Source: Escherichia coli (lineage in GTDB: Bacteria > Pseudomonadota > Gammaproteobacteria > Enterobacterales > Enterobacteriaceae). From it: DNA of 64,000 nucleotides. Below are positions 33,971-37,117 of the stretch, piece after piece. Location: NCBI RefSeq assembly GCF_044647545.1, contig NZ_CP172818.1; one strand, written 5' to 3'. Position numbers and translations under genes: made by a program. The notes beneath the pieces were generated by a model that had not been told where the DNA came from, did no database searches, and was given only the letters and a program-made list of their open reading frames with translations. Within the stretch, counting starts at the first letter, position 1. Every line of letters starts with the position of its first letter.

Positions 33971-35446
33971 ATGATTCGGTCAACACGTATTTCCCTGGGG
34001 TTATTCTTTAATTATTTTTTATCGTCAACGAAAATTGATCCTGGTCAAAACTATATATCTCTGCCATCAATAAAATCCAGCACTCACATTGCTCTCCTTT
34101 TTATGGCTTCTATGGGTACACAAAAATTAAAAGCTCAAGGCTTTTTTATTTTCAGCTTATTGCTGACGTTAATTTTATTTTGCATTACTACCTTATATAA
34201 CGAAAACACAAATGTAAAACTCATCCCACAGATGAATTACCTGATGGTTGTTGTGGCTTTGTTTTTCCTTAACGCCGTCATTTTTCTTTTCATGTTAATG
34301 AAGTATTTCACTAACAAACAAATTTTACCAACACTCATTTTAAGTCTTGCATTTTTAAGTGGCCTTATCTATTTAGTTGAAACCATTGTAATTATCCATA
34401 AACCAATCAACGGCAGTACACTGATCCAGACAAAGTCGAATGATGTTTCTATTTTCTATATTTTCCGCCAACTCAGTTTCATTTGTTTAACCTCGCTGGC
34501 GCTCTTTTGTTATGGGAAAGACAACATCCTTGACAACAATAAGAAAAAAACTGGCATTCTGTTGCTGGCGCTGATTCCTTTTTTAGTTTTTCCCCTTCTG
34601 GCACACAATCTGAGTAGTTATAACGCTGACTATTCTTTGTATGTCGTCGATTACTGTCCGGACAACCATACTGCGACCTGGGGAATCAACTATACAAAAA
34701 TATTGGTTTGTTTGTGGGCATTTTTACTGTTCTTTATTATCATGCGTACACGATTAGCCAGCGAACTATGGCCGTTAATAGCATTATTATGTCTGGCATC
34801 GCTATGCTGCAACTTACTTCTACTGACTCTGGATGAGTATAATTACACCGTCTGGTATATCAGTCGCGGGATTGAAGTTTCCAGTAAACTGTTTGTTGTG
34901 TCTTTTCTGATTTATAACATTTTTCAGGAACTGCAACTCTCCAGCAAACTGGCAGTTCATGATGTACTGACCAATATTTATAATCGGCGCTACTTTTTCA
35001 ACAGCGTAGAGTCATTATTGTCGCGACCTGTTGTTAAGGACTTTTGTGTCATGCTGGTTGATATTAATCAGTTCAAACGCATCAATGCCCAATGGGGACA
35101 TCGTGTGGGTGATAAAGTGCTGGTATCAATTGTCGATATTATCCAGCAAAGCATCCGCCCCGATGATATTTTAGCGCGACTGGAGGGTGAGGTGTTTGGC
35201 TTGCTATTTACCGAACTCAATAGTGCCCAGGCAAAAATCATTGCGGAACGTATGCGTAAAAATGTCGAACTCCTGACCGGCTTTAGTAACAGATATGATG
35301 TTCCTGAACAAATGACCATCAGTATTGGCACGGTTTTTTCAACGGGTGACACGCATAATATCTCGCTTGTCATGACGGAAGCAGATAAAGCCTTACGCGA
35401 AGCGAAAAGCGAGGGGGGCAACAAAGTGATTATTCATCATATTTAA
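33971..35446 (+). CDS. cdgI: membrane-anchored degenerate GGDEF protein (c-di-GMP effector)
   Basis: 491 aa; multi-TM N-terminal region; GGDEF-domain A-site reads EGEVF rather than GG[DE]EF. Confidence 0.9.
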   Translation: MIRSTRISLGLFFNYFLSSTKIDPGQNYISLPSIKSSTHIALLFMASMGTQKLKAQGFFIFSLLLTLILFCITTLYNENTNVKLIPQMNYLMVVVALFFLNAVIFLFMLMKYFTNKQILPTLILSLAFLSGLIYLVETIVIIHKPINGSTLIQTKSNDVSIFYIFRQLSFICLTSLALFCYGKDNILDNNKKKTGILLLALIPFLVFPLLAHNLSSYNADYSLYVVDYCPDNHTATWGINYTKILVCLWAFLLFFIIMRTRLASELWPLIALLCLASLCCNLLLLTLDEYNYTVWYISRGIEVSSKLFVVSFLIYNIFQELQLSSKLAVHDVLTNIYNRRYFFNSVESLLSRPVVKDFCVMLVDINQFKRINAQWGHRVGDKVLVSIVDIIQQSIRPDDILARLEGEVFGLLFTELNSAQAKIIAERMRKNVELLTGFSNRYDVPEQMTISIGTVFSTGDTHNISLVMTEADKALREAKSEGGNKVIIHHI

Positions 35447-35626
35447 GTGCAAAAATATTCAGAGCCATGCTTTTTGCGTGGCTTTTGCATACAATTTATT
35501 ACTATTACCCCTAAATTTCCCCTCCCCAGCGGCGCAGAGATGAGTATAATTAGCGCCCCTGTGCCAGGCCGCAATCGAACTTTATCTGGTTTTCTCGTTT
35601 CACTAACCGAAGGAGTGCCATTTATC

Positions 35627-37117
35627 ATGAAATTGCACCATAGAATGCTCCGGCATTTTATCGCCGCAAGTGTCATTGTGCTGACATCTTCCTTCCTTAT
35701 TTTTGAACTTGTCGCCAGTGACAGAGCAATGAGTGCCTATCTGCGCTATATCGTGCAGAGAGCAGACTCCTCCTTTCTTTATGATAAGTATCAGAATCAG
35801 AGTATTGCCGCGCATGTGATGCGCGCGCTCGCTGCTGAGCAGTCGGAAGTGTCGCCAGAACAGCGGCGCGCCATCTGCGAGGCTTTTGAGTCTGCCAATA
35901 ATACCCATGGCTTAAACCTGACTGCCCATAAATACCCTGGCTTACGCGGCACACTACAAACCGCATCCACTGACTGCGACACAATTGTGGAAGCTGCTGC
36001 ACTATTACCCGCTTTTGATCAGGCAGTGGAAGGCAACCGCCACCAGGATGATTACGGTTCAGGTCTTGGGATGGCCGAAGAGAAATTTCACTATTATCTC
36101 GATCTCAATGACCGCTATGTCTATTTTTATGAGCCGGTTAATGTTGAGTACTTTGCGATGAATAACTGGTCCTTCCTGCAGTCAGGAAGTATTGGCATCG
36201 ATCGCAAAGATATTGAAAAGGTATTTACCGGGCGTACCGTATTATCGAGCATTTACCAGGATCAGCGTACTAAACAGAACGTGATGAGTTTGCTGACGCC
36301 GGTATATGTCGCAGGGCAGCTAAAAGGGATTGTGCTGCTGGATATTAACAAAAACAATCTGCGGAATATCTTTTACACTCATGACCGCCCTCTCCTCTGG
36401 CGTTTTCTCAATGTCACGCTAACTGATACAGATTCGGGGCGCGACATTATCATCAACCAGAGCGAAGATAATCTGTTCCAGTATGTCAGTTACGTCCATG
36501 ACTTACCGGGCGGCATTCGTGTCTCGTTATCCATTGATATTCTTTACTTTATCACGTCTTCGTGGAAAAGCGTTCTGTTCTGGATTTTGACGGCGTTAAT
36601 TTTGCTGAATATGGTGCGGATGCACTTCCGTTTATACCAAAATGTGTCGCGAGAAAATATTAGTGATGCGATGACTGGACTCTATAATCGCAAAATTTTA
36701 ACCCCTGAACTGGAGCAGCGGTTGCAGAAGCTGGTGCAATCCGGTTCTTCGGTGATGTTTATTGCAATTGACATGGACAAGTTAAAGCAAATAAATGACA
36801 CCCTTGGTCATCAGGAGGGGGATTTAGCGATTACGTTATTAGCGCAGGCGATTAAACAGTCGATTCGTAAAAGTGATTATGCCATCCGACTCGGTGGCGA
36901 TGAATTCTGCATCATTCTTGTCGATTCGACACCGCAAATTGCAGCACAACTGCCTGAACGTATCGAAAAACGTCTGCAACATATCGCGCCGCAGAAAGAG
37001 ATCGGCTTCTCTTCCGGTATTTACGCGATGAAAGAAAACGATACGTTACATGATGCGTATAAAGCTTCCGATGAGCGTTTATATGTCAATAAGCAGAACA
37101 AAAACAGCCGTTCATGA
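35627..37117 (+). CDS. dgcJ: diguanylate cyclase with periplasmic sensor domain
   Basis: 496 aa from ATG with SD aggag; intact GGDEF motif (RLGGDEFCIIL). Confidence 0.9.
   Translation: MKLHHRMLRHFIAASVIVLTSSFLIFELVASDRAMSAYLRYIVQRADSSFLYDKYQNQSIAAHVMRALAAEQSEVSPEQRRAICEAFESANNTHGLNLTAHKYPGLRGTLQTASTDCDTIVEAAALLPAFDQAVEGNRHQDDYGSGLGMAEEKFHYYLDLNDRYVYFYEPVNVEYFAMNNWSFLQSGSIGIDRKDIEKVFTGRTVLSSIYQDQRTKQNVMSLLTPVYVAGQLKGIVLLDINKNNLRNIFYTHDRPLLWRFLNVTLTDTDSGRDIIINQSEDNLFQYVSYVHDLPGGIRVSLSIDILYFITSSWKSVLFWILTALILLNMVRMHFRLYQNVSRENISDAMTGLYNRKILTPELEQRLQKLVQSGSSVMFIAIDMDKLKQINDTLGHQEGDLAITLLAQAIKQSIRKSDYAIRLGGDEFCIILVDSTPQIAAQLPERIEKRLQHIAPQKEIGFSSGIYAMKENDTLHDAYKASDERLYVNKQNKNSRS

Follow-up and report, generated by a model that had tools for sequence, protein, structure and literature searches.

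CdgI, encoded by cdgI (yeaI) in Escherichia coli, is with good confidence a receptor of c-di-GMP and no longer a synthase, and its neighbour DgcJ an independent canonical cyclase. The two genes were analyzed in a stretch of 64,000 nucleotides (the window) from an E. coli chromosome, in which all features described here lie on the plus strand. Many E. coli chromosomes carry the 3,147-bp span of the two genes with 100% identity, under the names cdgI and dgcJ. The open reading frames had been placed correctly at 33971..35446 and 35627..37117. The original prediction, that CdgI is an inactive, c-di-GMP-binding effector, is supported by the loss of active-site residues, by an intact inhibitory site (I-site) and by published binding of the ligand to the purified GGDEF domain. 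The degenerate A-site, the intact I-site, c-di-GMP binding by CdgI and the activity of DgcJ have all been published previously. Thus, the observation is correct and adds nothing beyond the literature.

Active and inhibitory sites of CdgI

As annotated, cdgI (33971..35446) encodes 491 amino acids, in which Pfam identified a MASE4 integral-membrane sensor domain and a GGDEF domain. The MASE4 domain (PF17158; residues 88-319; 34232..34927) was matched over profile positions 5-237 of 239, with 164.8 bits and an E-value of 2.8e-48. The match of the degenerate GGDEF domain (PF00990; residues 328-485; 34952..35425) covered the full profile, positions 1-161 of 161, with an E-value of 9e-45 and 152.8 bits against a cut-off of 23.8. 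This domain also matched solved structures, with E-values down to 5e-22. The scores against TIGR00254 were 123 bits for CdgI, 121.5 for DgcJ and 126.6 for DgcP.

The motif positions were fixed by sequence alignment to solved cyclases (E-values around 1e-22). In the HMMER alignments, 'larlEGEVFgllf' of CdgI was paired with 'isrfGGEEFvilf' (6zxm) and 'agryGGEEFgiil' (3ign), and alignment to PleD with MAFFT placed E405-G406-E407-V408-F409 on G368-G369-E370-E371-F372. Thus EGEVF, translated from nucleotides 35183..35197, sits on the A-site, as had been claimed. The first glycine (PleD G368) is replaced by E405 and the catalytic glutamate at the fourth position (PleD E371) by V408, while the equivalents of PleD R446 and D336 are G483 and A373. 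Given these replacements and losses, cyclase activity is expected to be lost. The R446 position alone is not decisive, as the aligned arginine is missing also from DgcJ (N493) and DgcP (Q329). A GG[D/E]EF motif with the fourth-position glutamate is present in DgcJ (residues 423-427) and DgcP (253-257) and absent from CdgI. The I-site is intact: RPDD (R396-D399; 35156..35167), the equivalent of PleD R359-D362, is located five residues upstream of the A-site, and R427 takes the place of PleD R390.

The degenerate A-site and intact I-site of CdgI were reported by Sarenko et al. (2017; PMC5635695), who also found that the purified His6-GGDEF domain binds c-di-GMP (Fig. S4B), that CdgI makes heteromeric GGDEF contacts in two-hybrid assays and is toxic when overexpressed, and that the protein is undetectable under standard conditions. 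A later paper describes CdgI as 'catalytically non-functional' (PMC10459773). Taken together, CdgI would be an inner-membrane MASE4 protein with a GGDEF domain that is predicted to be incapable of c-di-GMP synthesis. It would still bind c-di-GMP at the inhibitory site formed by R396xxD399 plus R427, and would thus be a receptor for the molecule rather than a source. Based on the published two-hybrid data, its likeliest action may be to pair with other cyclases, or with degenerate GGDEF proteins, via their GGDEF domains, in heteromeric contacts open to modulation by c-di-GMP.

The contrary reading is that CdgI still acts as a diguanylate cyclase, weakly or under certain conditions, for instance as a heterodimer with a catalytic half-site from an active partner, and that its phenotypes arise via c-di-GMP synthesis. 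We consider this unlikely. Another primary study on yeaI, by Sanchez-Torres et al. from 2011, has been cited as showing that the gene raises c-di-GMP. Such activity would fit the retention of the Mg-binding D364, the guanine-binding N372 and D381, and K479 (equivalents of PleD D327, N335, D344 and K442), as well as of K369 and the third-position E407, and it would fit an allele from a cryptic clade that reads EGEEF with the catalytic glutamate present. In the literature, yeaI is handled as a cyclase gene in papers on RstA, and YeaI was listed among proteins with 'verified' cyclase activity by Spurbeck et al. (2012), citing earlier work (refs 24-27 collectively). In that study, WspR, a cyclase, rescued one biofilm defect of a ΔyeaI mutant in no-salt LB, but not in glycerol minimal medium, and the latter result speaks against residual synthesis. 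The substitutions at the positions of E371 (Val), G368 (Glu), R446 (Gly) and D336 (Ala) also argue against a residual cyclase, and the protein is regarded as inactive by the Hengge and Römling laboratories.

Start codon and candidate promoter of cdgI

The annotated start of the 491-residue CdgI is probably wrong. The 47-codon N-terminal extension (33971..34111) is probably non-coding, as judged from in-frame stops in this region in six other taxa and from the substitution pattern. Relative to K-12, the window carries five nonsynonymous and no synonymous differences in the extension, versus 3 and 19, respectively, over the remaining codons of cdgI (Fisher P=0.0007). In an O157:H7 strain, the first codon of the extension is not ATG. 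The only ATG that is invariant in the Escherichia and Citrobacter orthologues is at 34112, where a conserved frame of 444 amino acids begins with MGTQKLKAQ (34112..35446). This length agrees with the 443-448 amino acids of the CdgI paralogues and orthologues, and no recognizable Shine-Dalgarno sequence was found before this start. The likely mis-annotation touches every construct or tag built on the 491-residue model.

Upstream of the gene, a terminator-like hairpin followed by a T-run (33829..33857; 11-bp stem with six GC pairs) is located after yeaH and parts the yeaGH operon from cdgI. Its stem, TCAGCCAG...CTGGCTGA, is kept in all seven orthologous loci of our alignment A2. An FNR box, TTGATCCTGGTCAA, was identified at 34035..34048, with a 9/10 match to TTGAT-N4-ATCAA in the window and a perfect 10/10 match in three orthologues. 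A candidate -10 hexamer, TAAAAT (34071..34076; TAGAAT in some orthologues), stands out as an island of invariant columns in the same alignment. The box and the hexamer are separated by 22 nt in six of the seven loci, and the center of the box lies 29.5 nt before the hexamer. This arrangement suggests a class II (-41.5) geometry, with the start of transcription predicted near 34083.

Across the window, five matches to the FNR box with at most one mismatch were found where 2.9 are expected, and the box alone is not significant; the argument for a candidate FNR promoter is based on conservation, spacing and published ChIP. An identical 14-mer appears in Myers et al. (2013; Tables S5, S6 and S9), where it is a predicted FNR site, labeled 'Within yeaI', that coincides with an FNR peak in ChIP-seq and ChIP-chip, and no FNR-dependent change in yeaI expression was recorded in glucose minimal medium (Table S9). 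Other published inputs to cdgI include an AppY ChIP peak (log2 fold change of 5.1), a gel shift with RstA on yeaI, SrsR and CsrA. Consensus scans of positions 33700-37400 gave seven promoter and four terminator hits, compared to 8.7 and 3.3 in shuffled sequence, and thus no excess over chance. These scans missed the candidate FNR-type promoter, and conservation speaks for the yeaH terminator hairpin only. A search of positions 33000-38000 for structured RNAs and riboswitches in Rfam returned no family at the gathering score.

The gene is silent in standard aerobic laboratory culture. Because of the conserved FNR box and -10 hexamer and the published AppY, RstA, SrsR and CsrA inputs, expression under oxygen-limited or stress conditions is suggested. 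We tentatively go one step further, to a proposal that we hold at slightly below even chances: the first 47 codons may be untranslated and hold the true promoter, and the 'within yeaI' FNR site may be a class II activation site for the 444-residue CdgI. The protein would then be a c-di-GMP receptor gated by oxygen limitation, probably with the need for a co-activator such as AppY, and Escherichia would have converted an ancestral active cyclase, with GGEEF as in Citrobacter, to a receptor. If true, this would explain when the silent CdgI protein gets made. The "intragenic" FNR ChIP site is thereby recast as probably part of a promoter, and anaerobiosis, alone or together with AppY, would become a concrete candidate for the inducing conditions, which have been described as still unknown.

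DgcJ and the neighboring c-di-GMP genes

The spacer between cdgI and dgcJ (35447..35626; 180 nt) contains a strong Shine-Dalgarno sequence (AGGAG) before the ATG of dgcJ, and neither a terminator nor a promoter stood out convincingly from chance when it was scanned. The dgcJ (yeaJ) gene (35627..37117) encodes a GAPES1 and canonical GGDEF diguanylate cyclase of 496 amino acids, which scored 747 bits against the equivalog cut-off of 500 (NCBIfam NF040885). Pfam recognized the GAPES1 domain with an E-value of 7e-151 and the GGDEF domain with 137.9 bits. Alignment with PleD identified the I-site RKSD (R414-D417; 36866..36877), the R390 equivalent R445 and the A-site (residues 423-427). Nucleotides 36893..36907 translate to GGDEF, so that the motif is retained in dgcJ as predicted. 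The GAPES1 domains of EHEC YeaJ and its Salmonella homologue bind autoinducer-2 (PMC9637222). No difference from these AI-2-sensing cyclases is evident in the window DgcJ, which passes the DgcJ equivalog model and may likewise bind AI-2; residues 210 and 239 are Y and D, with the numbering assumed, without a pairwise alignment, to equal that of Salmonella YeaJ Y210/D239. With its GAPES1 sensor in the periplasm, DgcJ would be an independent, canonical cyclase subject to product inhibition.

The description of the pair as tandem GGDEF genes holds for their adjacency but not for a tandem duplication. A recent duplication was rejected, as CdgI and DgcJ have unrelated sensor domains and share only 29% identity between their GGDEF domains, whereas the identity of CdgI to its MASE4 paralogues and orthologues is 42-57%. 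With their own translation signals and unrelated sensor domains, cdgI and dgcJ are positional neighbors and not a duplicated pair.

Two further c-di-GMP genes were found where they had been predicted: dgcP (yeaP; 41301..42326), a GAF and GGDEF gene with the A-site GGDEF at 42057..42071, and pdeD (yoaD; 62162..63760), which encodes an EAL-domain phosphodiesterase. DgcP is without the RxxD motif and has QNGE instead (Q244...E247). No additional GGDEF or EAL gene is annotated in a strain whose sequence equals that of the window across cdgI-dgcJ and is near-identical to it elsewhere.

The four genes are thus present, but the claim that the neighborhood is unusually dense is at best weakly upheld by a test in which 29-32 genes were placed at random on a circle of 4.6-5.2 Mb. 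The probability of four genes inside the observed 29.8 kb was about 0.02. This span was chosen post hoc, and some 64-kb window with at least four such genes occurred in 12-21% of the random trials; treating the two adjacent genes as a single locus gave a probability of 0.24-0.85. A statistically exceptional density is therefore unsupported. It is likewise improbable that the four genes form a functional module, a 'c-di-GMP island' held together by selection. Such an island would be consistent with the clustering within 29.8 kb and with the gene order yeaH-cdgI-dgcJ-yeaK...dgcP, which E. albertii shares, as does a cryptic clade, although a core chromosome is expected to keep its gene order anyway. 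Unrelated housekeeping genes are located in between, the sensor domains differ and the GGDEF domains are 27-30% identical, all of which speaks against a module.

Evolution of CdgI and comparison with known systems

The cdgI gene was found in 5,418 of 5,426 complete E. coli genomes. Within Escherichia, the A-site variants include EGEVF, EGEEF, DGEVF, EGDVF, EGNVF and EGKRF, whereas RxxD is intact in all full-length Escherichia-type variants examined (RPDD in the database variants and RPED in L011). In three Escherichia comparisons (dS 0.6-1.1), dN/dS was 0.07-0.10 across both CdgI domains, as compared to 0.01-0.03 for the GGDEF domain of dgcJ. The degenerate domain is thus under purifying selection and no decaying relic, and pseudogene decay was ruled out on the dN/dS values. 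That cdgI is a former cyclase turning into a pseudogene without a selected function is very improbable: the undetected expression in laboratory culture, the conserved start without a recognizable Shine-Dalgarno sequence, the A-site that is still changing, the sizeable clusters of truncated alleles (345, 295 and 281 amino acids), the IS1-insertion, frameshift and deletion alleles in some strains and the deletion of cdgI from Shigella flexneri would all suit a relic, but low dN/dS in both domains, the intact RxxD, coverage of at least 80% of the gene in about 5,400 of the 5,426 complete genomes and the conserved promoter footprint upstream argue against it. The disrupted alleles and the loss in S. 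flexneri indicate that cdgI is dispensable in some niches.

As a receptor, CdgI can be compared with several known proteins. The K-12 CdgI (YeaI, b1785) is the same gene, with 98.2% nucleotide identity and shared EGEVF, RPDD and flanking genes. The differences are only allelic, and five of the eight amino-acid changes are inside the probably untranslated 47-codon extension. The MASE4-GGDEF paralogues DgcT (YcdT) and DgcX of E. coli share the architecture and the length class (443-452 amino acids), and their identity to CdgI is 40-45% for the whole protein and 42-50% for the GGDEF domain. DgcT and DgcX keep GGEEF and are active cyclases; CdgI does neither. The Citrobacter orthologues (P0020, P0023 and P0025) are likewise located between yeaH and dgcJ, are 58-62% identical to CdgI and share the upstream FNR box and -10 hexamer. 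Unlike CdgI, they retain GGEEF, ND, the tyrosine in LYEAK and GRN, and they look like active cyclases from these residues. Since they carry GGEEF, the A-site degenerated within Escherichia. Caulobacter PopA and Pseudomonas PelD are receptors with a degenerate GGDEF domain that bind c-di-GMP via the I-site, with a dead A-site and RxxD as the ligand site. CdgI shares this principle with PopA and PelD, whereas the N-terminal domains and the outputs differ.

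Gene content and functional sites of the cdgI-dgcJ region

Many E. coli chromosomes carry the 3147-bp span of cdgI and dgcJ at 100% identity, with the same names for the two genes, and the span is matched in 5419 of 5426 complete genomes. The gene order around cdgI is yeaG-yeaH-cdgI-dgcJ-yeaK. The positions originally given for the cdgI (33971–35446) and dgcJ (35627–37117) ORFs and for dgcP (41301–42326) and pdeD (62162–63760) all match. No further GGDEF or EAL genes are annotated in a strain that is identical over cdgI-dgcJ and near-identical across the remaining window. In the near-identical strain FDAARGOS_497, ydjK (window ~22437–23815) is annotated as a frameshifted pseudogene.

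The four genes are thus present, but the description of the neighbourhood as unusually dense in c-di-GMP genes has to be toned down, since their density is at most mildly unusual under random placement. With 29–32 genes placed at random on a circle of 4.64–5.23 Mb, the probability of at least four genes in some 64-kb window was 0.12–0.21. For four genes inside 29.8 kb, a span chosen post hoc, it was about 0.02. Treating the adjacent pair as a single locus gave values of 0.24–0.85.

Pfam searches identified MASE4 and GGDEF domains in CdgI, with the GGDEF match spanning the entire profile (E=9e-45), and GAPES1 and GGDEF domains in DgcJ, which scores above the DgcJ equivalog cut-off and has Y and D at residues 210 and 239. 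In HMMER comparisons with solved cyclases, EGEVF of CdgI fell exactly on GGEEF and RPDD on RxxD. We also aligned the GGDEF domains of CdgI, DgcJ and DgcP with PleD, the sequence of which was confirmed in the PDB, and took the functional positions from this alignment. The A-site of PleD (GGEEF, G368–F372) corresponds to EGEVF 405–409 in CdgI, and to GGDEF in DgcJ (423–427) and DgcP (253–257). EGEVF is thus located at the A-site, as originally noted, so the observation withstands the refutation proposed for it, and the canonical motif is kept in DgcJ. The Mg-binding D327 of PleD is retained in CdgI (D364), DgcJ (D382) and DgcP (D212), as are the guanine-binding N335 (N372, N390 and N220) and D344 (D381, D399 and D229) and the phosphate-binding K442 (K479, K489 and K325). 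PleD D336 is replaced by alanine in CdgI (A373; D391 in DgcJ, D221 in DgcP), and the phosphate-binding R446 corresponds to G483, N493 and Q329, respectively. Four features of an active cyclase are therefore missing from CdgI, namely the glycine and the catalytic glutamate of the A-site, D336 and R446, and its I-site is complete (R396/D399 and R427 for PleD R359/D362 and R390). Both sites are canonical in DgcJ (I-site R414/D417 and R445). DgcP combines a canonical GGDEF with QNGE at the RxxD positions (Q244/E247; R275 is present); it has no RxxD I-site and is, unlike DgcJ, predicted to escape product inhibition.

Evolution of the CdgI A-site

We extracted the A-site motif from CdgI homologues identified in database searches. 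The E. coli alleles have EGEVF, and other Escherichia sequences have EGEEF, DGEVF, EGDVF or EGNVF, the last in E. albertii. One more distant relative has EGKRF. All of these variants keep RxxD, as RPDD in the database variants and as RPED in locus L011. The Citrobacter homologues (58–62% identity) have GGEEF, along with ND, LYEAK and GRN motifs that are lost in Escherichia. The order yeaG-yeaH-X-dgcJ-yeaK is common to E. albertii, the cryptic Escherichia clade and Citrobacter, and the homologues there are positional orthologues of cdgI; in two more distant relatives, on shorter contigs, the cdgI homologue also adjoins dgcJ. With GGEEF in the Citrobacter orthologues, the sequence comparison places the inactivation of the cyclase inside the Escherichia lineage. 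Further downstream, nimR-nimT (window ~38341–40500) lies between yeaL and yeaO in E. coli and is missing in E. albertii and the cryptic clade (loci L004 and L007), where yeaL is directly followed by yeaO; Citrobacter has at least an AraC-type regulator and an MFS transporter in this interval.

A recent duplication as the origin of cdgI and dgcJ was rejected because their GGDEF domains are only 29% identical. Decay of the CdgI GGDEF domain was also rejected, its dN/dS being far below neutrality (0.07–0.10 at dS 0.6–0.9; Nei-Gojobori, three Escherichia comparisons). The MASE4 half showed similar values (0.075–0.084), and the dgcJ GGDEF domain lower ones (0.01–0.03). Matches to cdgI were found in 5418 of 5426 complete genomes, with at least 80% of the gene covered in 5408. 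Disrupted alleles occur occasionally, with an IS1 insertion (locus H34), a large deletion or a frameshift (locus L013), and there are truncated protein clusters of 281–345 aa. In rare cdgI'-'dgcJ alleles, the 5' part of cdgI is joined to dgcJ, and the encoded proteins (P0026 and P0035; 532 and 560 aa) have the architecture MASE4+GAPES1+GGDEF. In S. flexneri, cdgI is missing entirely.

Start codon and FNR site of cdgI

Most cdgI orthologues are annotated at 444–448 aa, as compared to 491 aa here. The sole invariant ATG is located at 34112 (MGTQK...). The 47-codon extension (33971–34111) appears to be non-coding, judging from in-frame stops upstream of the conserved start in all six other taxa, from five nonsynonymous and no synonymous changes relative to K-12 (3 and 19 in the remaining gene; Fisher P=0.0007), and from an annotated first codon that is not ATG in one O157:H7 strain. 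The 491-aa model in RefSeq and K-12 is thus probably too long at its N-terminus, and a protein of 444 aa that begins at ATG 34112 agrees better with these data.

The alignment of the extension is poorly conserved except for two invariant islands. The first, TTGATCCTGGTCAA (34035–34048), is an FNR box that shares nine of ten positions with the consensus TTGAT-N4-ATCAA here and all ten in three orthologues. The second, TAAAAT/TAGAAT (34071–34076), is a candidate -10 element. With a spacing of 22 nt in six of seven loci, the centre of the box lies 29.5 nt ahead of this hexamer, as in FNR promoters of class II (-41.5). This arrangement was recognised in the alignment independently of the published FNR data. 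Exactly the same 14-mer appears in the tables of Myers et al. 2013 (PMC3688515), where it is a predicted site placed "Within yeaI", beneath an FNR ChIP-seq and ChIP-chip peak (Tables S5, S6), demonstrating FNR binding. Their Table S9 reports no FNR-dependent change in yeaI expression in glucose minimal medium, and no transcription start or co-regulator on record for the site. When AppY is overproduced, cdgI shows a ChIP peak and a log2 fold change of 5.1, and RstA and SrsR also bind upstream. We infer that the FNR site is a promoter element for the shorter CdgI, with activation requiring a second input. Two by-products are worth passing on, the probable mis-annotation of the start and, as its consequence, a new classification of the FNR site.

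According to Table S2 of the same study (PMC3688515), σ70 occupancy near yeaI is increased under anaerobic conditions. For a peak placed "within yeaI" at K-12 1869297, the anaerobic signal is 26 times as high (407.9 as compared to 15.6). This position corresponds to about window 34859 if yeaI starts at 1868409, and a promoter-like CTGATA-16-TATACT is found there on the minus strand (~34836–34863). The peak may represent an anaerobic internal or antisense promoter.

Elsewhere in the window, about 70 homopolymer-rich nt (…aaaaaaaaagatggctaaaaattttttttttaacttttccccaaaaaaacccaaaaatttt…; 46836–46905) replace the normal start region at the 5' end of yeaV. This region is 56–75 nt longer in FDAARGOS_497 and encodes MMSNVKKKDVPLISISLVAILF… there. 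Among 4369 complete E. coli genomes with a match, the best 12 align across this stretch only as two pieces, with the subject 45–58 nt longer, a split to which the BLAST low-complexity filter may contribute. The replaced stretch has the appearance of an artefact of sequencing or assembly, or of an unusual mutation private to this genome.

Proposed role of CdgI and published evidence

On sequence evidence, CdgI combines a dead A-site and an intact I-site with a membrane MASE4 domain, and is under purifying selection. The degenerate A-site and the intact I-site were already described by Sarenko et al. 2017 (PMC5635695), who also showed c-di-GMP binding by the purified GGDEF domain and strong heteromeric interactions with several further GGDEF domains. 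In the same study, overproduction of the domain was toxic, and CdgI could not be detected under standard conditions; it is silent in laboratory culture. CdgI could act on other GGDEF proteins, as a partner or inhibitor that responds to c-di-GMP, and may be produced under oxygen limitation or stress. Spurbeck et al. 2012 included YeaI in a list of active cyclases and observed WspR complementation that depended on the medium. The dissent from CdgI inactivity is limited. Sanchez-Torres et al. 2011 is also cited for YeaI activity. Homologues of the neighbouring DgcJ are cyclases that sense AI-2, which is bound by the GAPES1 domain of the EHEC protein (PMC9637222). The reading of CdgI as an inactive c-di-GMP-binding effector is supported by the two sites together with the binding data of Sarenko et al. 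Both the confirmed observation and this interpretation are already known. Later papers describe CdgI as catalytically non-functional (PMC10459773) or as a c-di-GMP-binding protein.
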